In this document: piece by piece, positions 9,867 through 20,000 of the stretch
Numbering within the stretch: position 1 is the first letter of the stretch
Layout: each line of letters begins with the position of its first letter
Virus record (IMG/VR): IMGVR_UViG_3300008261_000059
Coordinates: 57,720-77,719 of that record
DNA: 20,000 nucleotides
Origin: an uncultured virus (IMG/VR IMGVR_UViG_3300008261_000059)
Taxonomy: Duplodnaviria; Heunggongvirae; Uroviricota; Caudoviricetes
Direction: 5' to 3' (one strand)
The notes under the pieces: generated by a model
What the model saw: the letters and a program-made list of their open reading frames with translations, nothing else
Databases searched by the model: none
What the model was told of the DNA's origin: nothing
Program-made: the position numbers and the translations under genes

Positions 9867-10078
9867 TATTTCCGTGCCTCAAAAAGTTTTCCGTCCATCC
9901 CACATTCATAATACTTTCGCACATGATCACAATACTTACCATTATTTCTTCCAGTCACAACATTTTCAGTCACAAGAGGATGAAGGCATAAGTCAAATGT
10001 GTCTCCAAATCCAGTAATACGAGCACCCCAATCTCTTTTGTAATGCTTACAATCCTTACAGAGATTTATGTCGGTCAT
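9866..10078 (-). CDS. Cys-rich putative metal-binding protein
   Basis: CKDCKHY...CLHP...CDHVR...CGMDGKLFE. Confidence 0.7.
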   Translation of the reverse strand: MTDINLCKDCKHYKRDWGARITGFGDTFDLCLHPLVTENVVTGRNNGKYCDHVRKYYECGMDGKLFEARK

Positions 10079-10398
10079 CAGGCAACACTCCAATAACCAT
10101 CAGAATTAAATTCAATACTTTCAGAACCATCGTAATCTGTAATAAGGAATTGAGTTCCAGGATAAACCCACTCTACTCGTAGTTGGTCGGCACCTCCACA
10201 ATAGACATATTCACCAGGAAAAACTGATTTCACATACTCTTCAATTTTGTCTTGTTGGTTGAATTCTACAAGGTCAACAAGTTTCTCATCGTGAAGAAGA
10301 AACTCACGATACTTATCACCATTCCAAGTGCTCCATCCTGCTCCATAACCAGGAGAGTACAGAACAGCAACTTTTCCGTCACGAATACATTTAGTCAT
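10078..10398 (-). CDS. conserved phage hypothetical protein (KVAVLYSPGYGAGWSTWN...DYDGSESI)
   Basis: 106 aa; recognisable widespread phage family, possibly distantly related to 7819-8241. Confidence 0.8.
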   Translation of the reverse strand: MTKCIRDGKVAVLYSPGYGAGWSTWNGDKYREFLLHDEKLVDLVEFNQQDKIEEYVKSVFPGEYVYCGGADQLRVEWVYPGTQFLITDYDGSESIEFNSDGYWSVA

Positions 10399-10619
10399 TT
10401 CTGATAATCCTCAAAATTAGGAACAGAACCGCATACTTTCTCTATCTCGTAGATAGACCTTTTGCTATCACTGCGACAATCCATATTCTTTGCGTATGCT
10501 TGTTGATACATCACACGAACTTGTTGTGCATCCCAGTAATTCATACCAATAACACCTCCAAAGAGACTCAAAATACCAATAACCAATACACTAAAAACAA
10601 TTGCGTCTTTGTTATCCAT
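10395..10619 (-). CDS. membrane-anchored hypothetical protein
   Basis: Start refined to MDNKDAIV; one TM helix. Confidence 0.65.
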   Translation of the reverse strand: MDNKDAIVFSVLVIGILSLFGGVIGMNYWDAQQVRVMYQQAYAKNMDCRSDSKRSIYEIEKVCGSVPNFEDYQK

Positions 10620-10882
10620 CAGTCCTCCACAATCAAGCAATAACGGCACTGGAAAATAAAGTTTTCTTTTTGCCAAGTTTTCTTCACACCATTCTCCTCC
10701 CAAGAATACACAACTTCAATCCAAGGGTCTGTGTCTCCATAAGAATTGAGACCTTCAACGGTCACATAACCTTTGGAACCATCTGCTCGTGCCCAACGAG
10801 AACCAACTTGGATTTCGTGTGCCTTGAAGATGTGACGGACAACTGCTCTGCGTCCATCTATGATTTCAGTTTCGTAGTCCAT
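10619..10882 (-). CDS. hypothetical protein
   Basis: 87 aa; first ORF after promoter copy 7. Confidence 0.75.
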   Translation of the reverse strand: MDYETEIIDGRRAVVRHIFKAHEIQVGSRWARADGSKGYVTVEGLNSYGDTDPWIEVVYSWEENGVKKTWQKENFIFQCRYCLIVED

Positions 10883-10904
10883 CGGTTTGGTTGCTTATGA
10901 GGTT

Positions 10905-10962
10905 ATTATAGACCAATAGGAGACCTTGTGGAGGTCTCCTGTGCCAGTTCTTCAAGTGTCCT
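10905..10962 (-). promoter_or_regulatory. repeated putative early promoter, copy 7 (perfect hairpin in spacer)
   Basis: TATAAT at 10905-10910; AGGAGACCT-tgtgg-AGGTCTCCT; TGTGCCAGTTcttcAAGTGTCCT from 10940. Confidence 0.85.
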
Positions 10963-11147
10963 CAAATGTCATACGGCATTTGAGGGTCTTTAGTCCATAG
11001 TTTAGAATACACTAACCACTTCTCTTGTTTGTCATCCATTTCAGCAGTCCAGTGATACCCATTCACATCAATAGCATCAAGGTAATGAATACCTTTGCGG
11101 TCATCAATAGTTCGGGTGATAGTTACAAACTTTACTTTTTCAACCAT
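10962..11147 (-). CDS. hypothetical protein
   Basis: Start refined to MVEKVKF. Confidence 0.7.
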   Translation of the reverse strand: MVEKVKFVTITRTIDDRKGIHYLDAIDVNGYHWTAEMDDKQEKWLVYSKLWTKDPQMPYDI

Positions 11148-11227
11148 AATTAAGATTTCCTGTTGCGAACATAATGAAAATAATGATAAAGAAAATTCCA
11201 AGTCCTACTGGAAGTGAATAATCTGGG

Positions 11228-11521
11228 TCAGTCATCACTCACAACTTCAAATGTAGGATTTCCATTAGTATCAAACTCAACAGCAAGATTTACTGTATAA
11301 CCACCAGAAATCTTCCAAGTAGCATCTTTATATTCTTGTGTTTCTTTCTCTGGATACTTTGCTTGATAATAACCATCTACAAGTTCATTAGCATCAACAT
11401 CTCCAAGAAAGTGAAGATTGATAAACTTTCGCAATCTCACCTCATCATCTGTGGAAAGATGAATGGTTACAGGAACAACAAACTTGTTCTCTGGTCCAAA
11501 TAGTTCATCAAGGTCAGTCAT
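11228..11521 (-). CDS. hypothetical protein
   Basis: 97 aa ORF, coupled. Confidence 0.7.
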   Translation of the reverse strand: MTDLDELFGPENKFVVPVTIHLSTDDEVRLRKFINLHFLGDVDANELVDGYYQAKYPEKETQEYKDATWKISGGYTVNLAVEFDTNGNPTFEVVSDD

Positions 11522-11709
11522 AGTGCTTCTACCTCATTGGCAAGTTCATACAATACATCAACAGGATTTTGAAGTTCTCCCCAATCAGTGCAAAGTCGTG
11601 CTGCTGCTTCGTTTAGGATAAAAGCAATCAGTTTCTTGCGGTCATCCTTCTGTGGTCGCAGTGTGAGTTCCATAGAAGCATCTAGGAGTTTTTGTGCTCT
11701 TTTAGTCAT
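11518..11709 (-). CDS. hypothetical protein (RAQ paralog family)
   Basis: 63 aa ORF. Confidence 0.7.
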   Translation of the reverse strand: MTKRAQKLLDASMELTLRPQKDDRKKLIAFILNEAAARLCTDWGELQNPVDVLYELANEVEAL

Positions 11710-11953
11710 CGTTTACATCCCAGTCCCACCAGTCAATAAAAACATCTTCAAATCGTTGAATATCAGTATTATCCATAGGAGAACCATTACCTCCTACCTC
11801 ATAAAAGATAGAATCAAATAATTCAGTAAGCATCATACTTTCAAATGCTTCTTGTGTTGGTTCCACATCCGAGTTCAAGAACATATCAGTTGTGGGAGCA
11901 ACTGTAATAGTTTTGCTATAGGTAATTGTGATTGCTTTGAGTGGGACGTTCAT
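11702..11953 (-). CDS. acidic hypothetical protein
   Basis: 83 aa ORF, coupled. Confidence 0.7.
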   Translation of the reverse strand: MNVPLKAITITYSKTITVAPTTDMFLNSDVEPTQEAFESMMLTELFDSIFYEVGGNGSPMDNTDIQRFEDVFIDWWDWDVNDD

Positions 11954-12213
11954 TTGTTTTTCCGATACCAGTCAAGATTGCGTGGAAGTGAAGTCATTAG
12001 GTCAAAATCAAATTGAAATCGTTTGTATCGGATGAAGAATCCAAACAACTGACGAGTGCCAATAGTCAACAAAATTTCTGGGATAATTTCATCTGCTCCA
12101 TAGTCATCCCACTGCACTGTAATATCAAGCAGAGCAAACTTGGAAGATTTGAGAACTTGAAAGAACCATTCCTTTCCATAGTCCTCGTAAGTTTCATAAT
12201 CAAAGAGTTTCAT
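11950..12213 (-). CDS. hypothetical beta-rich protein (MKL.D...DYG.E family)
   Basis: Similar to 13470-13712. Confidence 0.7.
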   Translation of the reverse strand: MKLFDYETYEDYGKEWFFQVLKSSKFALLDITVQWDDYGADEIIPEILLTIGTRQLFGFFIRYKRFQFDFDLMTSLPRNLDWYRKNK

Positions 12214-12652
12214 CAATCCTCTCCATTTTAGCAAGTGGTTGGTCTCCCCATTTCATAGGGTCATCATAGCATACTTGCATCATCTCGGGCCATTTGCGTG
12301 GAGAATCTTCACTCTCAATCAAACCATTCTCCACTGCCTGCTCCCAAGCAAGTTTATGCCGAATAACCTGATGAATGTCATAAAGAACTCCATTGTTCTT
12401 TGGAAGGTCTGGATGCCCAACACCCAATGAACTTCCATACCCATCAATTCCATCAATCATATGGTGAGCAAGAATCTTGCCGATGGTGCGTCTATCTGCG
12501 TGAAGTTGCTCGTAATCGGTTGGTCTTTTGAGAGGCAACCAATCCACAATTTCTTCCCACTGTCCCAACTCAACTCTTTGAAGTAAATCACAAGCAAAAG
12601 AAATTGCCAATGCTTGTTCTTTTGTAATTGTGAGATTATAAACTTTAGTCAT
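12200..12652 (-). CDS. hypothetical protein, 150 aa
   Basis: Long ORF after promoter copy 8. Confidence 0.8.
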   Translation of the reverse strand: MTKVYNLTITKEQALAISFACDLLQRVELGQWEEIVDWLPLKRPTDYEQLHADRRTIGKILAHHMIDGIDGYGSSLGVGHPDLPKNNGVLYDIHQVIRHKLAWEQAVENGLIESEDSPRKWPEMMQVCYDDPMKWGDQPLAKMERIDETL

Positions 12653-12803
12653 CTCTAAGTCTCACTCGGGGTTGAATGTCGTTGAACTCATCATACAGCA
12701 TCCTGGCAAAGAGCAGGTGGGGTCTTGTGCCAGTTTCCAAACTGGTGCTCGTTGCGACCGTCCACATTATATCAAGTTCAATTTTCGGTGGTAGTGGTTT
12801 CAT
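12645..12803 (-). CDS. hypothetical protein (52 aa, MKPLPPKIELDIMWTVATSTSLETGTRPH...)
   Basis: Manually translated; coupled at both ends; reads through promoter copy 8. Confidence 0.55.
   Translation of the reverse strand: MKPLPPKIELDIMWTVATSTSLETGTRPHLLFARMLYDEFNDIQPRVRLRDD
12690..12748 (-). promoter_or_regulatory. repeated putative early promoter, copy 8 (intragenic)
   Basis: TATGAT at 12690-12695; TGTGCCAGTTtccaAACTGGTGC from 12726 (spacer 30 nt). Confidence 0.65.
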
Positions 12804-12964
12804 TTGTATTCCTGCTTAGGACAAGATGTATAAAATACTCCTTCAATATAACAAGACTTTCCTGGTTCATAGTATTGCATTTTAGGTGGTTCATAGTTTC
12901 TTTCACACACAAACCAACCATCTAAACACATCATCAATATGCCATTAATTATAGTTAAATTCAT
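12800..12964 (-). CDS. small Cys-containing protein (54 aa, MNLTIINGILMMCLDGWFVC...)
   Basis: Manually translated; coupled. Confidence 0.55.
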   Translation of the reverse strand: MNLTIINGILMMCLDGWFVCERNYEPPKMQYYEPGKSCYIEGVFYTSCPKQEYK

Positions 12965-13191
12965 TACTCAGCATACCCAGAATAATTACTAGCACTATTT
13001 GCCGATGAACTTTTCATATCCCAAACGTCTTTGCTTAAAGATTGAACTGCAGACATCACATTACTATCAATAGAACTTACCTTATATTGAAGTTCTATCA
13101 TTTGACGGTAAAGATTCAAACACATAAACATATTCAATAGAATACTACCACCAAGAGTATATTTGATAATGTTTTTTTGCTTTTCAGTCAT
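12964..13191 (-). CDS. membrane-anchored hypothetical protein
   Basis: 75 aa with an N-terminal TM helix. Confidence 0.65.
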   Translation of the reverse strand: MTEKQKNIIKYTLGGSILLNMFMCLNLYRQMIELQYKVSSIDSNVMSAVQSLSKDVWDMKSSSANSASNYSGYAE

Positions 13192-13278
13192 TGTCTTTAA
13201 GTGAGTAAATAAAAATCCATAACCAGATGTACATTACAACAAATATAATGATTCCTACGTCTATGGGAGAAAATGTCA

Positions 13279-13470
13279 TTAGGTTAAATGCTTAGGTTTA
13301 TCTGAATCAAACTGACACCACTTTGCACCTTTCATATTCAAGCACATTAAAAGTGTTTGATGCTCTCCATCATATCTTTGCCAGTCTTGTGCAAGTTTGG
13401 CAGCATATCGTCTTTGATATGCACAGCACCAAACATTATAGTATATTTTTGCCTTTTCTGAAAGTTTCAT
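13279..13470 (-). CDS. hypothetical protein
   Basis: 63 aa ORF, coupled. Confidence 0.7.
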   Translation of the reverse strand: MKLSEKAKIYYNVWCCAYQRRYAAKLAQDWQRYDGEHQTLLMCLNMKGAKWCQFDSDKPKHLT

Positions 13471-13712
13471 CAGTCGTCATACTTAGAGGGCCAATTATAT
13501 CCAGCAACATCAAAATCTAGACCAAACTTGTATACCCAGAGAATAACAGAAAGAAGTCGTCCACATCCAGAAGAAACTTGAATATAAGGCCAACCAGCAT
13601 AGTCATTCCAATTCAAAGAGACTTGAAGAAATGACCGATTCTTTCCTTTCAGAAAACAAAAATAATATTCGTGTCCAAAGTCTTGGATATATTTAAAGTC
13701 TAGAAGTTTCAT
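13470..13712 (-). CDS. hypothetical beta-rich protein (MKL.D...DFG.E family)
   Basis: 80 aa; similar to 11950-12213. Confidence 0.7.
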   Translation of the reverse strand: MKLLDFKYIQDFGHEYYFCFLKGKNRSFLQVSLNWNDYAGWPYIQVSSGCGRLLSVILWVYKFGLDFDVAGYNWPSKYDD

Positions 13713-13951
13713 TTCTTCTCTTCAGGTTTGGGTTGTGGTTGAGTCTGAGGTTTTGGTGGAGCATAAGGAACTCTACCAGTTTCATTATACATCAAAATAT
13801 CGTATTTGAACTTACACTCATGTGGTTTTTGATTGCACAATTTGAGTGTATTGTTTGTCGTACTTTCTGTACTAACAACTCCACCGATACTAAATCCAAT
13901 CATTCCCATAATTATAAGAAGTGGATAAGCAACAAGAGGTTTAATAAACAT
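13709..13951 (-). CDS. membrane-anchored protein with a Cys pair
   Basis: Start refined to MFIKPL; TM helix, then LCNQKPHECKFKY. Confidence 0.65.
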   Translation of the reverse strand: MFIKPLVAYPLLIIMGMIGFSIGGVVSTESTTNNTLKLCNQKPHECKFKYDILMYNETGRVPYAPPKPQTQPQPKPEEKK

Positions 13952-13956
13952 AATAA

Positions 13957-14340
13957 TCAATCCCAAGAAACATTTTGAAGTAAGAACCCAGGCATCACAT
14001 AAGTCCATGCACCAGATTCTTGATTACCACCAACTTTATATTCCCACTTATACTCATATTTGTTATGACTATCCCATGTCATATATCCTTTCTCTTTATC
14101 AAATCGACCTTTAATGGTCAACCCAAACTTATTGGAAAAGATGTTGCGGGTGCGAAGAGCACCACCAGTTTCACGAGTTTCTACAACTTTACAGGTATCA
14201 GGATAAGTCTGAAGTCCTGCCTCCAAAACACATGGAGTTTCATATACAAAAGGACGATACACCTTCGGTTTAGGTGGTACTGTCTGTGCAAATGTTGGCA
14301 CAGACATAAAAACTACAAGAAGAGCAAAAAAATGTTTCAT
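13957..14340 (-). CDS. putative exported protein
   Basis: Signal-peptide-like MKHFFALLVVFMSVPTFA-Q. Confidence 0.7.
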   Translation of the reverse strand: MKHFFALLVVFMSVPTFAQTVPPKPKVYRPFVYETPCVLEAGLQTYPDTCKVVETRETGGALRTRNIFSNKFGLTIKGRFDKEKGYMTWDSHNKYEYKWEYKVGGNQESGAWTYVMPGFLLQNVSWD

Positions 14341-14537
14341 TTAATAATTTTCCAGTTACTATCTTCAGTTTTGTTTACTGTAAACTTATACTTACCGTTT
14401 ACAGAGGTCAAAAATAGCACATTTTCTCTTTCAATGTCAACATAACAACTGTGCAAGTTGTCCATTTCGGTATTAAACCTCAGTTGAGCAATACTAGAAG
14501 TTGGTTGAACACAAACAAATTTTCTTTTAGTTGTCAT
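14337..14537 (-). CDS. hypothetical cyanophage protein
   Basis: 66 aa ORF, coupled. Confidence 0.7.
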   Translation of the reverse strand: MTTKRKFVCVQPTSSIAQLRFNTEMDNLHSCYVDIERENVLFLTSVNGKYKFTVNKTEDSNWKIIK

Positions 14538-14548
14538 GATTTAATTAC

Positions 14549-15247
14549 TTAGAAATTGTAGTTTTGGCACCTAATACAAGGTGGGGGATAATTACTCTTT
14601 AAGTGAGTAACAAAAAAAACTTGAGTCAATCTAAAATCTTCATTTTTCATCAAAAAACCAGAATGTCTATGCCAATAGGAACCACTATACATAATCATTC
14701 TGTTGTAGACATTCTTAAATTCTACAGTCTTATGAAATTTTAAATTGTGCTTTGATTTGATTTTAGCATATTCATCTGGAGGCAATCCTTTTTTGTTATA
14801 AAAATTATTTCTTACACTCCAGTCAATTTCATTTTCATCAATATCATCTGCTTCATATATCGAAGTTCCAGAATCTAAACTTGGATTTGGATTTAAATAG
14901 ATAACTCCTGCAAAAATTGTATTATCGTCAACATGTGTCCATCCAGAGTTTACTTCATTTGAATCTTCAATTGAAGATTCAAATGGATAAATTTTTTGAA
15001 AATAAGATTGAACTTTCCAATCCAAATAATTTGAATTAAAATCAAAAAACAAAGAAAAGACCTTATTGCATAAAACATCAAAAAGATGGGGTGATATTTT
15101 ATGAACTAGTTGACTTCTTTCTCCTGGATAATTTCCATCCTCTTTCTTTGAATAGTCTAAAGATAAAGCAAAGTCTCTAATTTTATCTGGGTCAGAGTAA
15201 AAATCATCAACACATGTTATTGGAAATAAATTTTTACTCGTAATCAT
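14549..15247 (-). CDS. DUF6445-type 2OG-Fe(II) oxygenase-like protein
   Basis: DDFYSDPD.IR.FAL, YPG.RS, H.D (THVD), AGVIYLNP, GT..Y, NVYNR..Y...H, RLTQVFF motifs. Confidence 0.75.
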   Translation of the reverse strand: MITSKNLFPITCVDDFYSDPDKIRDFALSLDYSKKEDGNYPGERSQLVHKISPHLFDVLCNKVFSLFFDFNSNYLDWKVQSYFQKIYPFESSIEDSNEVNSGWTHVDDNTIFAGVIYLNPNPSLDSGTSIYEADDIDENEIDWSVRNNFYNKKGLPPDEYAKIKSKHNLKFHKTVEFKNVYNRMIMYSGSYWHRHSGFLMKNEDFRLTQVFFVTHLKSNYPPPCIRCQNYNF

Positions 15248-15416
15248 CTTGTTCGTATGGTTCTTCTAATAGATAAAATTTTTCTTCTTTATTATAGACT
15301 AAAATGTTACTTTGATTTTTAGGAGTGTACCAATCTTTAATCTGACTGTAATAAAAGTCAATCACTTGGTTGTGAGTTAATTCTTTTGCCCAATTTTCAG
15401 ACATCATCAACATCAC
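15234..15416 (-). CDS. hypothetical protein
   Basis: About 57-60 aa ORF filling the gap between two genes. Confidence 0.55.
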   Translation of the reverse strand: MMLMMSENWAKELTHNQVIDFYYSQIKDWYTPKNQSNILVYNKEEKFYLLEEPYEQDDYE

Positions 15417-15820
15417 TTATTCATTTGAAGTGTAGGAACAGGCATACCACCTTCAGTTGGAACATAAATGGTCACATTACCATTCTTGGCACCATCTTCG
15501 ATACCAGTGATATACAGATACTGAAGATACTCACGGTTGTCCTTCAGTGAATCACCGATGATTTGGTTTGCCTTAGCAACACCAGTAGCACGGATGATTT
15601 CAGCATCGGCAAGTTGTTGAGCACTATCTTTCTTTGCTTGTGCTTCCAGAACTGCTACCTGACGAGTATACTCTGCTTTCTGAAGTTCTGCTTTACCAGC
15701 AAGAGATTGTTGCCACACATTATATTGTGGACCACCAATAAAGATGAGACCACCAATTACAATCACACCAACAGAAATAGCAACGATAGCAGGGTCAATA
15801 AATCCGTTTTGTTGTTTCAT
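15413..15820 (-). CDS. SPFH/band-7-like membrane protein
   Basis: N-terminal TM helix; AxA-rich coil AEIIRATGVAKANQIIGDSL..YLQYL..; TIYVPTE tail. Confidence 0.7.
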   Translation of the reverse strand: MKQQNGFIDPAIVAISVGVIVIGGLIFIGGPQYNVWQQSLAGKAELQKAEYTRQVAVLEAQAKKDSAQQLADAEIIRATGVAKANQIIGDSLKDNREYLQYLYITGIEDGAKNGNVTIYVPTEGGMPVPTLQMNK

Positions 15821-15935
15821 TTGTCATTCTCCAGAGTAGATTCAAGAAGTTCGTCCATAATACGACGAGCACGATAATTTAAGATAATATCCATTACACA
15901 ATAACCAAAAGCAAATCCTGCCATAAGTGTAGTAA

Positions 15936-16127
15936 TCATTTCGAAGAACCTCCAGTGGGTTTGAAAATAAGATTAGCAAGAAATACGATAGCAAGATTTT
16001 GCCAGATGGTCAATGAAACATTAAACCAAGACAAAATCAATCCAAGCAGTGCTGCTTCAAAAAATAGAGCAGCAACAGCAAGAACAATTACACCAAAGGT
16101 GAGACCAAGAGCAGTAGAAGTTTTCAT
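15936..16127 (-). CDS. small two-TM membrane protein
   Basis: 63 aa, almost entirely hydrophobic. Confidence 0.7.
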   Translation of the reverse strand: MKTSTALGLTFGVIVLAVAALFFEAALLGLILSWFNVSLTIWQNLAIVFLANLIFKPTGGSSK

Positions 16128-16130
16128 AAA

Positions 16131-16541
16131 TCAGACGTGAAGAGCAGTAGAGGGGATTTCAATAATTTCTGGAAGTTTTTGTTCATAACAATTCATAGTA
16201 TAGCACACCCACTCACCATTGCGATTGAAGAGGTATGCGTATTCCTCACCATCAGACAAATACTCTGTCAGAGTCTCATCGTGCCGTGGAGGACAATCTT
16301 GACCACGTTGAGAGTAGTATTGAGGACCATATTCTTGTGCTTTAGTCTCACTATTCCAACGGTCTTCAGTCCAGCAGGAACTCATGTCACCACCATCAAT
16401 CAACTCAGCAACTTTCTCCCGAGTGTTGTAGTGAGTGTTGAGAATGCGACCCAACCATTCGGGATAACCATCCCAGTGGTGATACACAGAAAGCACAGAA
16501 CCGTTCTTGAGTTCGATGCCGATACGTGAACGAGTAGACAT
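16131..16541 (-). CDS. conserved phage hypothetical protein (MSTRSRIG...VY.HWDGYP..LG..L..HY...EYAYLF)
   Basis: Recognisable widespread motif family of unknown function. Confidence 0.85.
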   Translation of the reverse strand: MSTRSRIGIELKNGSVLSVYHHWDGYPEWLGRILNTHYNTREKVAELIDGGDMSSCWTEDRWNSETKAQEYGPQYYSQRGQDCPPRHDETLTEYLSDGEEYAYLFNRNGEWVCYTMNCYEQKLPEIIEIPSTALHV

Positions 16542-16554
16542 AATAAATTAAAAA

Positions 16555-16692
16555 TCAGATTTCAGGGTCATCAACACCAAACCAGTCATCTTCGGCAACT
16601 GGTTCTTCAGTAAAAATATCTTCTAAATCTTCGTAAATATCAAAGTTGTCGAGTTCTTCAATTTGCGATTCGTCAAGAAAAATCCGAGTCAT
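16555..16692 (-). CDS. extremely acidic 45 aa protein
   Basis: Manually translated; GAGGT RBS; first ORF after promoter copy 9. Confidence 0.65.
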   Translation of the reverse strand: MTRIFLDESQIEELDNFDIYEDLEDIFTEEPVAEDDWFGVDDPEI

Positions 16693-16714
16693 GCACCTCT
16701 TTGATTACCTAGTA

Positions 16715-16772
16715 ATCATAGCACGACTCGGACTGGGTTGGGGACTTCAGTGGACGGTTGCCCGACTGTCCT
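16715..16772 (-). promoter_or_regulatory. repeated putative early promoter, copy 9
   Basis: TATGAT at 16715-16720; GTGGACGGTTgcccGACTGTCCT from 16750. Confidence 0.75.
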
Positions 16773-17020
16773 CAGTATTTTTTTGTTTTCTTTGATACTG
16801 GTCTTTCGTGAATTGTTCCTTCCTGAACAAGACCATCACCATCTCTGTCTCTAGCATTTGGATTGAAAATTTCATTTTCTTCCACAACTGCTTCTGGTGC
16901 AGAGAGTTCCGTAACTTCAACTACAGGTGCAGATACCTCTACTGATTCTGCTACTGGTGCAGGAGCAAAAACTTCTTCTGCTGGTTGATTTTCTTGGAAT
17001 AAATCAGTAAATCTTCCCAT
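16772..17020 (-). CDS. acidic low-complexity protein with a DxDxDG loop
   Basis: 82 aa; NPNARDRDGDGLVQEGT motif; upstream AATAAATA late-promoter-like box. Confidence 0.7.
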   Translation of the reverse strand: MGRFTDLFQENQPAEEVFAPAPVAESVEVSAPVVEVTELSAPEAVVEENEIFNPNARDRDGDGLVQEGTIHERPVSKKTKKY

Positions 17021-17036
17021 TGTTTTAATTCGAATT

Positions 17037-17162
17037 TTAATTATTTATTTTTTTACTAATCACTTCTTCTTTGGGTCCATCAATATGATAAACAACATGT
17101 AAACTTTCCCATGTCACAATAGAAACAACACTAGAAAGAATTGCAATGATAACAAATTTCAT
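17037..17162 (-). CDS. small membrane peptide (41 aa, MKFVIIAILSSVVSIVTWESLHVVYH...)
   Basis: Manually translated; GAGGT RBS. Confidence 0.55.
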   Translation of the reverse strand: MKFVIIAILSSVVSIVTWESLHVVYHIDGPKEEVISKKINN

Positions 17163-17170
17163 AATTTACC

Positions 17171-17335
17171 TCAGTGATTGTGACAAACTCCATCTTGGTG
17201 GCAGTGTGCTTGATTTGCATTCATATGGAAGGTCCCATGATAAAAACCAAATCCAATGAAAGCAGTCGATGCGGAGACTACTGCTGCAACAAAGAAAGGA
17301 GCAATATTGTTTACAGTTAATGTGAGTGACTTCAT
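17171..17335 (-). CDS. small TM protein with a His/Cys-rich C-terminus
   Basis: Start refined to MKSLTLT, downstream of the late promoter; ends HCHQDGVCHNH. Confidence 0.7.
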   Translation of the reverse strand: MKSLTLTVNNIAPFFVAAVVSASTAFIGFGFYHGTFHMNANQAHCHQDGVCHNH

Positions 17336-17363
17336 GAACTTTCTAAAATGAATAATTCTTGAG

Positions 17364-17371
17364 TATTTATA
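17364..17371 (-). promoter_or_regulatory. T4-type late promoter TATAAATA
   Basis: Exact gp55 consensus about 30 nt upstream of an ATG. Confidence 0.7.
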
Positions 17372-17395
17372 AAATAAAAGGGGCATTGCACCCCT
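17372..17395 (-). terminator. intrinsic terminator of the tmRNA gene
   Basis: AGGGGT-gcaat-GCCCCT hairpin followed by a T-rich tail. Confidence 0.75.
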
Positions 17396-17633
17396 ATGTA
17401 AGTTTTGGGTAAGAAGGAAACTTATAACCCCCTCCACTCATTTAGAGTCAAACTGCAACAGGTGCAGACTGACGAGTGAACTTGACGATTTTATTCGCTG
17501 CGTTTGTTTGTTTGTTTGTCCCGTCAACAGATAAGACCTTTATGCCCCGTCGAAACCAGTACATCCCCCTGAAATGGAGATGTGGGGAATCGAACCCCAG
17601 TCCGAAACATCAGAATTCCCATCCTCTTGAACA
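17396..17633 (-). ncRNA. ssrA: circularly permuted two-piece tmRNA (cyanobacterial type)
   Basis: Acceptor piece ...GGACTGGGGTTCGATTCCCCACATCTCCA (ends 17575) precedes coding piece GGGGATGTACTGGTTTCGACGGGG (starts 17568); 7-bp acceptor stem with G3:U70; tag ORF 17448-17501 AANKIVKFTRQSAPVAV*. Confidence 0.93.
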
Positions 17634-17639
17634 CTTTAT

Positions 17640-17668
17640 ATATTACTCTTTTTCTTTCAAATAGTCAA
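17640..17668 (-). promoter_or_regulatory. sigma70-type promoter for the tmRNA
   Basis: TTGACT-17 nt-TAATAT, overlapping the def stop codon. Confidence 0.55.
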
Positions 17669-18083
17669 CAAATAAAACTCCATCTAAATGGTCAATCTCA
17701 TGTTGAACAATTCTCGACAATAAACCATCTACTTTTTCGAAGATTGGTTTTCCCTTTGCGTTTCTATATTTAATCTTTATTGATTCTGGTCTTTTCACAT
17801 TATCAAAAACACCAGGAACACTTAGACATCCTTCTTCAAAATTAACAAGGGTATCACTTTTCCATACTATTTCTGGATTGATTAAAATCCAGTCTTTTCC
17901 TTTATTATCAACAATTATAATTCTTTTACTTACACCAACTTGAGGAGCAGCAATACCAATACCATTTTTCTCTCTCATGGTCTTTGCCATATTAAAACAA
18001 AGATACCTTATGGTATCATCAATATTTGCTACTCTTTTTGCTTTTTCTCTTAAAACCTTTGACCCAATCGTTTGAAGTTCCAT
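17643..18083 (-). CDS. def: peptide deformylase
   Basis: GIGIAAPQVG, EGCLS and QHEIDHLDG motifs; short C-terminus typical of cyanophage PDFs. Confidence 0.96.
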   Translation of the reverse strand: MELQTIGSKVLREKAKRVANIDDTIRYLCFNMAKTMREKNGIGIAAPQVGVSKRIIIVDNKGKDWILINPEIVWKSDTLVNFEEGCLSVPGVFDNVKRPESIKIKYRNAKGKPIFEKVDGLLSRIVQHEIDHLDGVLFVDYLKEKE

Positions 18084-18105
18084 ACTTCCCTACGCAATTG
18101 GTTAA

Positions 18106-18178
18106 TGGAGAATAGGAGACTCGAACTCCTGACCTTGGCCTTGCAAAGACCCTGCTCTACCAACTGAGCTAATTCCCC
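18106..18178 (-). tRNA. tRNA-Ala(TGC)
   Basis: Cloverleaf, GGGGAAT/ATTCTCC stem with G3:U70, anticodon TGC. Confidence 0.93.
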
Positions 18179-18210
18179 GTTTTTTTTTTTATTTAGGATA
18201 AAAATCCTAA

Positions 18211-18292
18211 TATCGATGAGAGGACTTGAACCTCCACGAATTACTTCACTGGAACCTAAACCCAGCGCGTCTACCAATTCCGCCACATCGAC
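18211..18292 (-). tRNA. tRNA-Leu(TAG)
   Basis: Cloverleaf with long variable arm, anticodon TAG. Confidence 0.93.
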
Positions 18293-18295
18293 AAA

Positions 18296-18421
18296 GAAAA
18301 CACCAGACCTTATTCTTCCTGTTCTCAGGAACCACCAGGTAATGGGCAGGGAGACCTTGCAAGGATTTGTACCCCCGAAGTTTGTCCAGCATTTTCAGTT
18401 TGGAAGACCTAGGACTTCCAA
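18296..18421 (-). ncRNA. structured intergenic RNA candidate (possibly manA-motif-like)
   Basis: GC-richer spacer with hairpins TTGGAAG/CTTCCAA and TTCCTG-agaa-CAGGAA, a CCTTGCAAGG palindrome and CTTCGG; family assignment is from memory and unverified. Confidence 0.45.
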
Positions 18422-18493
18422 CTCCCCCACCTCGATTCGAACGAGGAACCTTAGAGTTAACAGCTCTCTGCTCTGCCGTTGAGCTATAGGGGA
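18422..18493 (-). tRNA. tRNA-Asn(GTT)
   Basis: Cloverleaf, anticodon GTT. Confidence 0.92.
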
Positions 18494-18499
18494 ATAAAA

Positions 18500-18667
18500 T
18501 TAACTTTCCTTAGAAAGCATATATTCAACAGTGTTTGCAATGTCATTCATTGCAACTCGTAAATCTGGTTGTTGACCAGTTTCCTGCTTAACGATTGGTC
18601 GGGAATCATCAGTTAATGACCACCTCCACTGACCCATATCTTTACAGTACCAGAGATTTATTTTCAT
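18500..18667 (-). CDS. hypothetical protein (55 aa, MKINLWYCKDMGQWRWSLTDD...)
   Basis: Manually translated; ATGA overlap with the oxygenase. Confidence 0.7.
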   Translation of the reverse strand: MKINLWYCKDMGQWRWSLTDDSRPIVKQETGQQPDLRVAMNDIANTVEYMLSKES

Positions 18668-19275
18668 TTGTTAGAAATATAATCATAATGTGGATGAATA
18701 TGCATAAACATTGTAATTGAGTATCTACCCAATTTTTGATTTAAATACTTTTCATCCATTTTTACTTCAGTAACAGAATGTTTTGCCCAAGAAGGAAACA
18801 TCAACATTGAGTTATTTTGTACTTCAAATGTTTTTCCAATATCATTAAGAATGAGGTCTCCCCCATCAAAATGCTTTGGTTCTTTGAAAAACCAAAATAA
18901 CACTGTTACTGATGCAGAATCAGTATGTGGTTCATAACAATCTGCATTTTCATAATAAGATAATAATGTTTTAGAGTAATTTGTATTTAGCACTGCTCTA
19001 TTTGAATAGTGCAATTGACTATAATCTAATATATAATTATCTAAAACTTTTCTAGTTAATCTCCATAAAGATGTTTTATGTGGATTTGTGTAAAAATCAC
19101 TCACCCAAACACCTTTATTCTTCTTCTTGAAAGAACCATTTTTTTCTGCTGAACCAGTTACTTCTGGACCCTCAAGAATTAATGGATTATTTAAAAAGTT
19201 TAACTCATCAAAAATCAAATCCAATTCGGATTGACTGAAACAATTTTCTTTATAAAGATAGTGAATTGTGTCCAT
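18664..19275 (-). CDS. 2OG-Fe(II) oxygenase (prolyl-4-hydroxylase-like)
   Basis: HTD, F.GGDL, MFPS..KHSVT.V and RYSI motifs; start refined to MDTIHY because the longer frame overlaps tRNA-Pro. Confidence 0.88.
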   Translation of the reverse strand: MDTIHYLYKENCFSQSELDLIFDELNFLNNPLILEGPEVTGSAEKNGSFKKKNKGVWVSDFYTNPHKTSLWRLTRKVLDNYILDYSQLHYSNRAVLNTNYSKTLLSYYENADCYEPHTDSASVTVLFWFFKEPKHFDGGDLILNDIGKTFEVQNNSMLMFPSWAKHSVTEVKMDEKYLNQKLGRYSITMFMHIHPHYDYISNK

Positions 19276-19300
19276 ATAATTAAAAGAAAATTGTTTCAAG

Positions 19301-19374
19301 TCGGGATGATAGGATTCGAACCTACGACCCTCTGTTCCCAAAACAGATGCGCTACCAAGCTGCGCTACATCCCG
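19301..19374 (-). tRNA. tRNA-Pro(TGG)
   Basis: Cloverleaf, anticodon TGG. Confidence 0.95.
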
Positions 19375-19405
19375 AGTTTGTTTAACAATATATGTATATT
19401 GTTAA

Positions 19406-19477
19406 TGGGAAATACTGGATTCGAACCAGTGACTTACCACTTGTAAGGAGGCCACTCTACCACTGAGTTAATTTCCC
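19406..19477 (-). tRNA. tRNA-Val(TAC)
   Basis: Cloverleaf, anticodon TAC; weak anticodon stem. Confidence 0.88.
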
Positions 19478-19552
19478 TGGAGCGAAAGACGAGATTCGAA
19501 CTCGCAACAACCTGCTTGGAAGGCAGGGACTCTACCGTTGAGTTACTTTCGC
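19478..19552 (-). tRNA. tRNA-Gly(TCC)
   Basis: Cloverleaf, anticodon TCC, encoded CCA. Confidence 0.94.
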
Positions 19553-19603
19553 AAATGTTGAGGAATTTCTTCCTCAACTCACTTCCTTCACACGGACTAA
19601 AGA

Positions 19604-19632
19604 AGTGTAAGACAGAATTGAAATTCTGTCAA
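19604..19632 (-). promoter_or_regulatory. sigma70-type promoter inside the tRNA array
   Basis: TTGACA-17 nt-TACACT, overlapped by the inverted repeat GACAGAATT-ga-AATTCTGTC. Confidence 0.7.
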
Positions 19633-19705
19633 GCCCACGGTCGGACTTGAACCGACGACCTACGGTTTACAAAACCGTTGCTCTATCCAGCTGAGCTACG
19701 GAGGC
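19632..19705 (-). tRNA. tRNA-Thr(TGT)
   Basis: Cloverleaf, anticodon TGT. Confidence 0.94.
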
Positions 19706-19725
19706 ATTTTGCTCACAAGGAGCAA

Positions 19726-19810
19726 CGGAAAGGGTGGGATTCGAACCCACGGATGCTTTCACATCGCTAGTTTTCAAGACTAGAGCCTTCAACCACTCGA
19801 CCACCTTTCC
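19726..19810 (-). tRNA. tRNA-Ser(TGA)
   Basis: Cloverleaf with long variable arm, anticodon TGA. Confidence 0.94.
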
Positions 19811-19819
19811 AATATAACA

Positions 19820-19848
19820 ATCATACTATATGTAGCATAGATTGTCAA
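19820..19848 (-). promoter_or_regulatory. sigma70-type promoter inside the tRNA array
   Basis: TTGACA-17 nt-TATGAT just upstream of tRNA-Ser. Confidence 0.75.
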
Positions 19849-19849
19849 G

Positions 19850-19923
19850 CGTTCTCTGGAGGATTTGAACCTCCGACTTCTTGGTTCGTAGCCAAGCACT
19901 CTATTCCACTGAGTTAAGAGAAC
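19850..19923 (-). tRNA. tRNA-Arg(ACG)
   Basis: Cloverleaf, anticodon ACG. Confidence 0.94.
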
Positions 19924-19926
19924 AAG

Positions 19927-19998
19927 CACAGGATAGAGGACTTGAACCTCTACTAAAAGTTTTGGAGACTCTCGTGCTACCAATTACACCAATCCTGC
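19927..19998 (-). tRNA. tRNA-Trp(CCA)
   Basis: Cloverleaf, anticodon CCA. Confidence 0.9.
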
Positions 19999-20000
19999 TT

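Follow-up and report, generated by a model that had tools for sequence, protein, structure and literature searches.

Two-piece, or permuted, transfer-messenger RNAs (tmRNA, ssrA) are known from bacteria, in which their precursors are cut into two pieces, and also from phages: a survey of 18,146 phage genomes reported 402 with a tmRNA, 133 unique and 53 two-piece, and of the 53 two-piece RNAs 50 belong to phages of marine or aquatic origin (Buchholz et al. 2022, PMC9004378). Table S1 of that survey carries the entry 'Permuted' for S-CAM1, S-CAM3, S-CRM01, S-SSM7, S-SSM6a, S-CBWM1 and Marine virus AG-345-P14. Here we analyse a stretch of 20,000 nucleotides (the window, below) that forms the last 20 kb of the 77,719-bp IMG/VR virus record IMGVR_UViG_3300008261_000059, estimated by CheckV as 37% complete, and that belongs to an uncultured freshwater T4-like cyanophage; we put at about 0.8 the probability that the two-piece tmRNA gene in it is functional. 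The gene class is already in print, though only as table rows, and the novelty that a first-pass annotation of the letters had attached to the locus was overrated, since permuted cyanomyovirus tmRNAs stand in the same Table S1. The gene itself is real and of known kind, and the less ordinary point is the phage-specific ending of the peptide tag that it encodes.

The accessible part of Hudson et al. 2014 lists phage tmRNAs from mycobacteriophages and Bacillus phage G only, one cyanophage genome paper sought a tmRNA and had none in its phage, and the terms 'Phage', 'Synechococcus phage' and 'cyanophage' were not found in one text supplement of the tmRNA database paper (PMC11915505). In the literature searched, which leaves most subscription journals outside, we found no discussion of the structure, phylogeny or tags of cyanophage tmRNAs, nor of a phage departure from the host tag ending.

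The permuted tmRNAs of cyanomyoviruses are the closest systems, matching the window in type of gene and type of phage and sharing one phage-side lineage with it on our tree; S-CAM1, S-CAM3 and AG-345-P14 have also the promoter layout of the window. The window differs from the listed cyanomyoviruses by its freshwater metagenome origin, by a deformylase gene rather than a tRNA directly upstream (phage-type loci generally have a tRNA within their flanks, in 65 of 108 cases among the matches listed), and by the tag AANKIVKFTRQSAPVAV, where those phages have ANTSDSAANNIVAFSRSTVAA, ANNVVKFRRTAVTSLVAAL and longer forms. With Prochlorococcus, marine and freshwater Synechococcus and Cyanobium, whose tmRNAs are described by the Rfam model RF01851, it shares the permuted order, the 7-bp acceptor stem with G3:U70, A73, the T-arm and P2, and further a short spacer, an unencoded CCA, the tag core AN[K/N]IV-F-R, a 3' hairpin with pseudoknot and a terminal hairpin. 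Unlike these hosts, it scores 133 bits against about 300, is missing the leader and post-P2 hairpins, has a sigma70-like promoter of its own and a tag ending in VAV instead of the -AA of the 100 host loci listed, and no smpB was found with it.

More distant are the Methylophilales phage Melnitz and the pelagimyophages, which likewise encode a permuted tmRNA behind an early-type promoter; the roles proposed for the Melnitz RNA are to maintain the hijacked translation machinery or to tag proteins for recycling (Buchholz et al. 2022, PMC9004378). According to the same source these RNAs, unlike that of the window, are of the alphaproteobacterial type and may carry a glutamine riboswitch, and Table S1 reports such a riboswitch for AG-345-P14; our Rfam search gave no riboswitch at gathering score in the window and no glutamine riboswitch at gathering score in the 3.3-kb AG-345-P14 locus. 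The mycobacteriophages of the Bxz1 group, Bacillus phage G and DS6A resemble the window in having a phage ssrA with no smpB reported beside it in the accessible part of Hudson et al. 2014. They belong to other host phyla, the Bxz1-group and phage G tmRNAs being one-piece with unpermuted order and that of DS6A being described there as having no tag frame.

A permuted tmRNA gene and its fold

ARAGORN calls a permuted tmRNA ('tmRNA*') at 17357-17664 on the minus strand, and two Rfam models match above their gathering scores: cyano_tmRNA (RF01851) over the full model, positions 1-288, with 133.2 bits (gathering score 70, E 1.8e-36), and tmRNA_permuted (RF04321) over model positions 1-213 with 87.9 bits (gathering score 47). 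The reading of the first-pass annotation, a phage-encoded permuted tmRNA of picocyanobacterial type, is thus supported by both of the programs that it had named as checks. The gene consists of the following parts, all on the minus strand.

17663..17668, minus strand: -35-like hexamer TTGACT, from a consensus scan, within the 3' end of the deformylase open reading frame (ORF)
17640..17645, minus strand: -10-like hexamer TAATAT, from a consensus scan, overlapping the deformylase stop codon (17645-17643)
17575..17633, minus strand: predicted acceptor piece, with the 5' strand of P2 (17624-17603), the T-arm (17599-17583) and the 3' acceptor strand (17582-17576)
17569..17574, minus strand: intervening spacer TTTCAG, 6 nt, which separates the acceptor piece at its 3' end from G1 of the coding piece
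17380..17568, minus strand: coding piece predicted from the Rfam alignment and covariation, with the 5' acceptor strand (17568-17562), the conserved TGGTTTCGAC and the 3' strand of P2 (17549-17529)
17448..17501, minus strand: tag reading frame GCA GCG AAT ... GTT GCA GTT TGA, read by ARAGORN as AANKIVKFTRQSAPVAV and a stop
17399..17435, minus strand: 3' hairpin (17435-17428 with 17418-17412) and pseudoknot
17370..17395, minus strand: intrinsic-terminator-like hairpin AGGGGTG CAA TGCCCCT (17395-17379) and then the T run TTTTATTTT, matching the terminal hairpin of the Rfam model

Within 17664-17370 the minus strand reads T-arm GGGG TTCGATT CCCC, then CATCTCC-A, TTTCAG, GGGGATG and TGGTTTCGAC, so that the 5' acceptor strand comes only after the T-arm and 3' acceptor strand (17599-17576). 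Seven standard pairs join 17582-17576 to 17562-17568, among them G3:U70 at 17566:17578; A73, the discriminator, is at 17575 and G1 at 17568, and the alanine identity set (7-bp stem, G3:U70, A73) is complete in the window. P2 has 15 pairs, six of them G-U, and the coding piece includes, besides its P2 strand, the tag ORF, the 3' hairpin with its pseudoknot and the terminator; in the pseudoknot 7 bp can form between UAAGUUU in the loop (17424-17418) and AAACUUA at 17405-17399. The permuted order, the stem with its identity pair, the GU-rich P2, the two processed ends, and the places of tag frame (17501-17448), candidate promoter (17668-17640) and terminator hairpin had all been given correctly by the first-pass annotation.

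The CCA end is not encoded, because TTT follows A73, and it is likewise unencoded in the eight aligned host genes. Spacer length is 5-6 nt in 12 loci of phage type, while the spacers of 100 host loci measure 5-30 nt, most often 6 nt (50 loci); these figures, like all counts over the phage-type and host loci below, are counts among the matches listed. A homology search with blastn found the homologous stretch in 17 GenBank phage records, namely S-CAM1 (7), S-CAM3 (4), S-CRM01 (2), S-SSM7 (2), S-SSM6a (1) and AG-345-P14 (1), with 70.7-72.5% identity over about 60% of the query for S-CAM1, S-CAM3 and AG-345-P14, and viral and metagenome contigs carry the gene as well. The annotation under this stretch in the 17 records is 'none', 'hypothetical protein' or 'record has no annotation', which agrees with the earlier remark that gene callers miss such genes.

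Evidence for a maintained RNA comes from covariation. We aligned 13 distinct phage copies with eight diverse host copies (alignment A1), for which RNAalifold gives a consensus of 41 pairs. Over these 21 copies 94.9% of the cells are standard-paired, compared with 84.0% in shuffles (0 of 500 as high), and both-side changes occur at 19 pairs, compared with 11.8 in shuffles (0 of 500); when the partner is slid by 1-3 columns as a control, pairing falls to 46-52%. G3:U70 is kept in 21 of 21 copies, and in P2 (helices 1-3) both-side changes affect 7 of 15 pairs. The 13 phage copies taken alone keep standard pairs in 91/91 cells of the acceptor stem, 65/65 of the T-arm and 180/194 of P2, with both-side changes in 8 of the 15 pairs of P2 and in 3 of the 5 in the T-arm.

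The pseudoknot was scored per sequence, the MAFFT alignment being one column off between phage and host rows at that place. All 8 hosts and 8 of the 13 phage copies allow a pairing of at least 5 bp between the loop and a partner strand about 13 nt downstream of it, the site being the same and the letters different; the 7-bp pairing of the window is equalled in 10 of 1000 shuffles. A single 5-bp match would be weak, and the support lies in the same site pairing through different letters. By these alignments the tRNA-like domain, P2 and, in the lineage of the window, the 3' pseudoknot are maintained, and a structure kept by compensatory changes is unlike a decaying captured gene.

Tag peptides of phages and hosts

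ARAGORN places the resume codon at GCA (17501), and the host alignment places it at the next codon, GCG, in which case the tag is ANKIVKFTRQSAPVAV; its length is 17 or 16 residues accordingly. From the Ala resume codon to the stop it ends in a non-polar C-terminus, VAV, and it is without the host-type -AA ending, which is a regularity of our host sample and not a part of the Rfam definition.

For comparison, the permuted tRNA-like domain was sought by pattern scans, which yielded 18 and then at least 119 viral contigs, at least 120 genome contigs, and 26 metagenome contigs whose domain has the phage-clade form and whose phage-type status is by domain sequence only. ARAGORN found at least 209 permuted tmRNAs with a picocyanobacterial-type tag, 100 in host genomes and 109 of phage type; the phage-type loci are those of viral contigs and isolate phages, the 26 from metagenomes and the window itself. 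As the same contig stands in two collections for some loci, we rely on counts of distinct tags.

Among the matches listed, the 100 host loci have 13 distinct tags, all ending in -AA, and 54 of these loci read ANKIVSFSRQTAPVAA. The 109 phage-type loci have 45 distinct tags, of which 22 end in Val (58 loci), 22 in Ala (49 loci) and one in Leu; the -AA ending is present in 12 of the 45, and the last two residues always follow [A/T/L/P][A/V/L]. The N-terminal core AN[K/N]IV-F-R is common to phage-type and host tags. Across lineages the VAV ending is written with GTT, GTG, GTA or GTC, then GCA, GCT or GCC, then GTT, and within the window's own tag type the middle codon is GCA in three loci and GCT in two. 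On the tree described below, 'ends in Val' requires at least seven changes and 'ends in -AA' at least six, all among phage rows; the earliest-branching rows of both large phage clades retain host-like tags ending in PVAA or LVAA, and Val endings occur in both clades. By these comparisons the tag ending is constrained, being non-polar and persisting through synonymous change, but the constraint is unlike that of the host.

One of the two large phage clades has lengthened tags in which a second AAN[K/N]IV motif follows a 6-residue leader, for example AKTDTPAANNIVAFTRIAELATV and AKSSDTAANNIVAFSRILTREFARTDELVTA; such tags (L142, L143 and many further loci) end in -TV, -TA or -PA.

Origin of the phage lineage

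A first tree, for which permuted tmRNAs of betaproteobacteria served as outgroup, had 120 rows and placed 16 of 17 phage rows in one group apart from all 100 host rows, and one long-branched phage row (L009) at the base of the hosts. A larger tree contains 75 phage-type, 66 host and three outgroup rows, k-mer-thinned from 78 and 95 distinct genes, with the window represented by its identical copy L017. Here the hosts fall into a single group (support 85/96, recovered in 85% of bootstrap trees) with 0 of 75 phage rows inside. When all phage rows were constrained to one clade, the resulting tree gained 26 log-likelihood units over that of the free search, with p = 0.74 in the approximately unbiased (AU) test, so that a single phage clade is not rejected. 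One old acquisition with subsequent spread among phages is consistent with these data, and the long branches make the rooting of the phage group insecure. As no phage copy falls among host copies, we take the gene for an old phage lineage and not for a recent capture from a present-day host; the earlier description 'host-derived' holds in this deep sense only.

The nearest relatives of the window are uncultured contigs with tags AANKIVKFTR[Q/H]SAPVAV, and the sister group of these relatives has tags AN[K/N]IVAFTRQTALV (support 100/96).

Permuted tmRNAs of other types were met on the viral contigs L002, L016, L004, L011, L003, L006 and L013 and at 36 further loci, with tags such as the Rhodocyclaceae-type ANDERFALAA, ANDSSYLKVA, AKPNGFALPLAA and long tags such as ANADTFDFTAMSFTGNTV..., so that two-piece tmRNAs of phages reach well beyond cyanophages. 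A contig titled as a Sphingobacterium thalpophilum metagenome-assembled genome (L085) has a picocyanobacterial tmRNA with the tag ANNIVRFSRQTAPVAA, which groups with Synechococcus and Cyanobium, and this bin probably contains a cyanobacterial contig.

Transcription

The two hexamers listed above form, with a 17-nt spacer, a sigma70-like site spanning 17668-17640, and the transcript would start near 17633. The same arrangement, TTGAC[T/A], 17 nt and TA[A/C]TAT with a variable spacer sequence, stands at a fixed upstream distance in 9 of 17 phage loci (the window, L017, L001, L010, L015, S-CAM1, S-CAM3, AG-345-P14 and L005), and five more of the 17 stand directly behind a tRNA gene. A conserved promoter of the host housekeeping type suggests early transcription by the host polymerase.

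Contigs from RNA libraries of four runs in two studies cover 17388-17603, 17324-17481, 16988-17515 and 16752-17549 with no differences, showing neither ends nor strand, and these four metatranscriptome runs contain 35-57% of the sampled words. The part 17604-18101 is covered by no RNA-library contig, a gap that carries no evidential weight. These contigs lend weak support to expression, and the RNA gene, which the annotation of the contig missed, is probably expressed.

Function and alternative explanations

The gene shows every sequence and structure feature of a picocyanobacterial permuted tmRNA, and very probably its product would serve as a rescue RNA. We propose that host RNA polymerase would start at the promoter within the last part of the deformylase gene and run to the terminator, giving a single precursor of about 250 nt. 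From it the tRNA-processing enzymes of the host would excise the 6-nt spacer, RNase P cutting at G1 (17568), and the 3' end would be trimmed to A73 (17575) and receive CCA; given the permuted gene order, cleavage is logically required for a working acceptor stem. The two RNAs, held together through the acceptor stem and the 15-bp P2, could be charged by the host alanyl-tRNA synthetase through G3:U70 and A73, and host SmpB would deliver the RNA to ribosomes halted on broken mRNAs, which ought to abound as host RNA is degraded by the phage. Translation would resume on the tag frame and the ribosome would be released at the TGA stop of the tag. The phage would probably gain by having more of its ribosomes free, which fits the adjacent tRNA array and deformylase gene, and the roles proposed for the Melnitz RNA are of the same kind.

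The supply of SmpB falls in this scheme to the host. The smpB gene that the first-pass annotation proposed to look for elsewhere in the genome was not found as PF01668 on the 77.7-kb contig (37% complete), and PF01668 is absent from four complete tmRNA-bearing cyanomyovirus genomes and G001, a virus contig of 83,217 bases from another assembly (0 of 5), while the control search was positive in 10 of 14 genomes. As no SmpB gene was found, the SmpB of the host would have to serve.

Several observations weigh against a working rescue RNA. With only about 37% of the genome in hand, a phage SmpB elsewhere is possible. The cyano_tmRNA score of 133 bits is less than half that of host tmRNAs, the 13 phage loci scoring 74-159 bits and three host copies 298-323 bits. 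A hairpin just after P2, present in 8 of 8 hosts, is absent from 11 of 13 phage copies (A1 columns 171-180, near 17521 in the window), and the host leader hairpin is missing in phage copies (A1 columns 26-44, about 17645-17626), many of which have the promoter in its place. The single-sequence fold is not above shuffles (z -1.41), recovering the T-arm and acceptor stem and not P2; it is uninformative, and for this reason covariation was used. The RNA-library contigs may stem from DNA carry-over, and two of them read through the terminator into downstream genes. The departure of the tag C-terminus from the host consensus could mean relaxed rather than altered function, and transcription, processing, charging and tagging are all inferred from sequence.

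That last departure may be read in more than one way. In E. coli the determinant recognised by ClpX lies in the last residues of the tag. The tag of the window ends Val-Ala-Val and that of the host Val-Ala-Ala. Products with the phage tag would therefore be handled differently; a non-polar C-terminus probably marks them all the same, and their breakdown is probably slower than that of host-tagged ones. In Synechocystis, Huang et al. 2010 compared enhanced yellow fluorescent protein without a tag and with several tags of the ssrA type, and its accumulation fell in the order untagged > ASV > AAV > LVA, Val-ended tags thus still destabilising, only less so, in a test of E. coli-derived tags in a distant cyanobacterium. 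Tentatively, and accepting that it may well prove wrong, we suggest that a phage-only lineage has repeatedly swapped the host -AA degron ending for Val, as a re-tuned quality-control signal and not a spare part. If this is true, stalled ribosomes would be freed while breakdown of the tagged products is slowed or re-routed, and the phage's own truncated proteins could be spared, or host Clp proteases kept from saturation.

The same functional tmRNA might instead have a tag ending of no adaptive value, its C-terminus drifting where degradation is irrelevant to a lytic phage. The 45 distinct tags in 109 phage-type loci, as opposed to 13 in 100 host loci, and an ending that changed at least six or seven times on the tree are what such drift would produce; it would be a drift within narrow bounds, though, the last residue being only A, V or L (22, 22 and 1 of 45), Val-Ala-Val being kept through varied codons and Val endings having arisen in both large phage clades, and we consider it unlikely. 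A further possibility is an RNA that mainly sequesters host SmpB or competes with the host tmRNA, giving less tagging and degradation, with the tag frame of minor importance. Such a decoy would explain why the tRNA-like domain is the best-kept part and the tag the most variable, and the DS6A RNA, which consists of the tRNA-like domain only, is described as resembling a strong tmRNA inhibitor in the accessible part of Hudson et al. 2014. A decoy would have little use for a tag frame, yet this frame is open in all 109 phage-type loci among the matches listed (a partly circular count, ARAGORN requiring a tag frame), all 45 distinct tags obey the same two-residue ending, VAV survives synonymous codon changes and the N-terminal core is that of host tags; we find the decoy quite improbable.

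Finally, the gene could be host DNA on a phage contig, through an assembly chimera, a recent capture or an ssrA attachment-site remnant of a temperate element, and a host/phage chimera was among the conditions under which the first-pass annotation would have fallen. tmRNA genes are indeed common integration sites, and their fragments occur in prophages (Buchholz et al. 2022, PMC9004378; the accessible part of Hudson et al. 2014). The present gene, in contrast, is complete, stands far from every sampled host copy and has phage genes on either flank; G001 shows the same junctions at 100% identity, these junctions recur in 16 runs that contain at least half of the sampled words, and integrase PF00589 was not found on the contig, with the control positive in 14 of 14 genomes. 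Host origin in this sense is extremely improbable, and on the grounds of phage flanks, G001, freshwater runs and the missing integrase we set a chimera or host-DNA piece aside for practical purposes.

A functional two-piece tmRNA of an uncultured cyanophage, as preferred here, gives an RNA gene missed in this contig and unlabelled among its homologues in the GenBank records of related phages, and adds a freshwater lineage to the listed marine cases. With a tRNA array, a deformylase and a tmRNA on one strand, the locus bears on the wider question of how lytic phages manage captured translation machinery, and the departure from the host tag ending raises the question of whether ribosomes may be rescued without the host's normal degradation of the rescued products.

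Genomic neighbourhood

The ORFs of the window lie almost all on the minus strand. Megablast matches the window to 116 phage records. Synechococcus phages account for 86 of these, and S-PM2 is the best match, with 84.8% identity across 13% of the window. The tmRNA stretch is present in 20 public run rows of 13 studies, all labelled freshwater, lake water or aquatic, and an ARAGORN-permuted tmRNA on a viral record from an aquatic source fits the class described in the survey of Buchholz et al. 2022. The contig has a single copy of the gene, flanked on either side by phage families (PHROG, Pfam), with two translation-related features upstream.

17643..18083, minus strand: peptide deformylase gene (Pfam PF01327, E 1.3e-49; phrog_2890), directly upstream of the tmRNA gene
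18106..19998, minus strand: array of 10 tRNA genes (ARAGORN, Rfam tRNA), reaching the contig end

A gene for a 2-oxoglutarate (2OG)-Fe(II) oxygenase is located between tRNAs of the array, so that a translation-related block with ten tRNAs, this oxygenase and the deformylase occupies 17643-19998 and the tmRNA gene comes next; the adjacency of deformylase and tmRNA is seen in 8 of 108 other phage-type loci among the matches listed. Downstream of the tmRNA gene follow phrog_1987, phrog_11227 and phrog_1644. A search for Gp23 (PF07068) gave no match on the contig, and its control likewise matched nowhere, so that the result carries no weight.

G001 is identical to the window over 10001-20000 (100%) except for an 86-bp gap, and with this identity across the tmRNA region the contig is not a chimera. 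The gap leaves G001 without bases 10647-10732, inside the minus-strand ORFs 10619-10882 and 10395-10703, and, 86 not being a multiple of three, the frame is shifted in one of the two assemblies.

A listed 88-residue ORF at 17171-17437 on the minus strand begins at a GTG within the 3' part of the tmRNA gene; the in-frame ATG at 17335, past the terminator, is the more likely start and would give a small hydrophobic protein of about 54 residues. The S-CAM1 locus also has a wcaG RNA motif (RF01761, 83.5 bits with 42 as the gathering score) at 68-164 on the minus strand of L139, some 2.4 kb away from the tmRNA gene.

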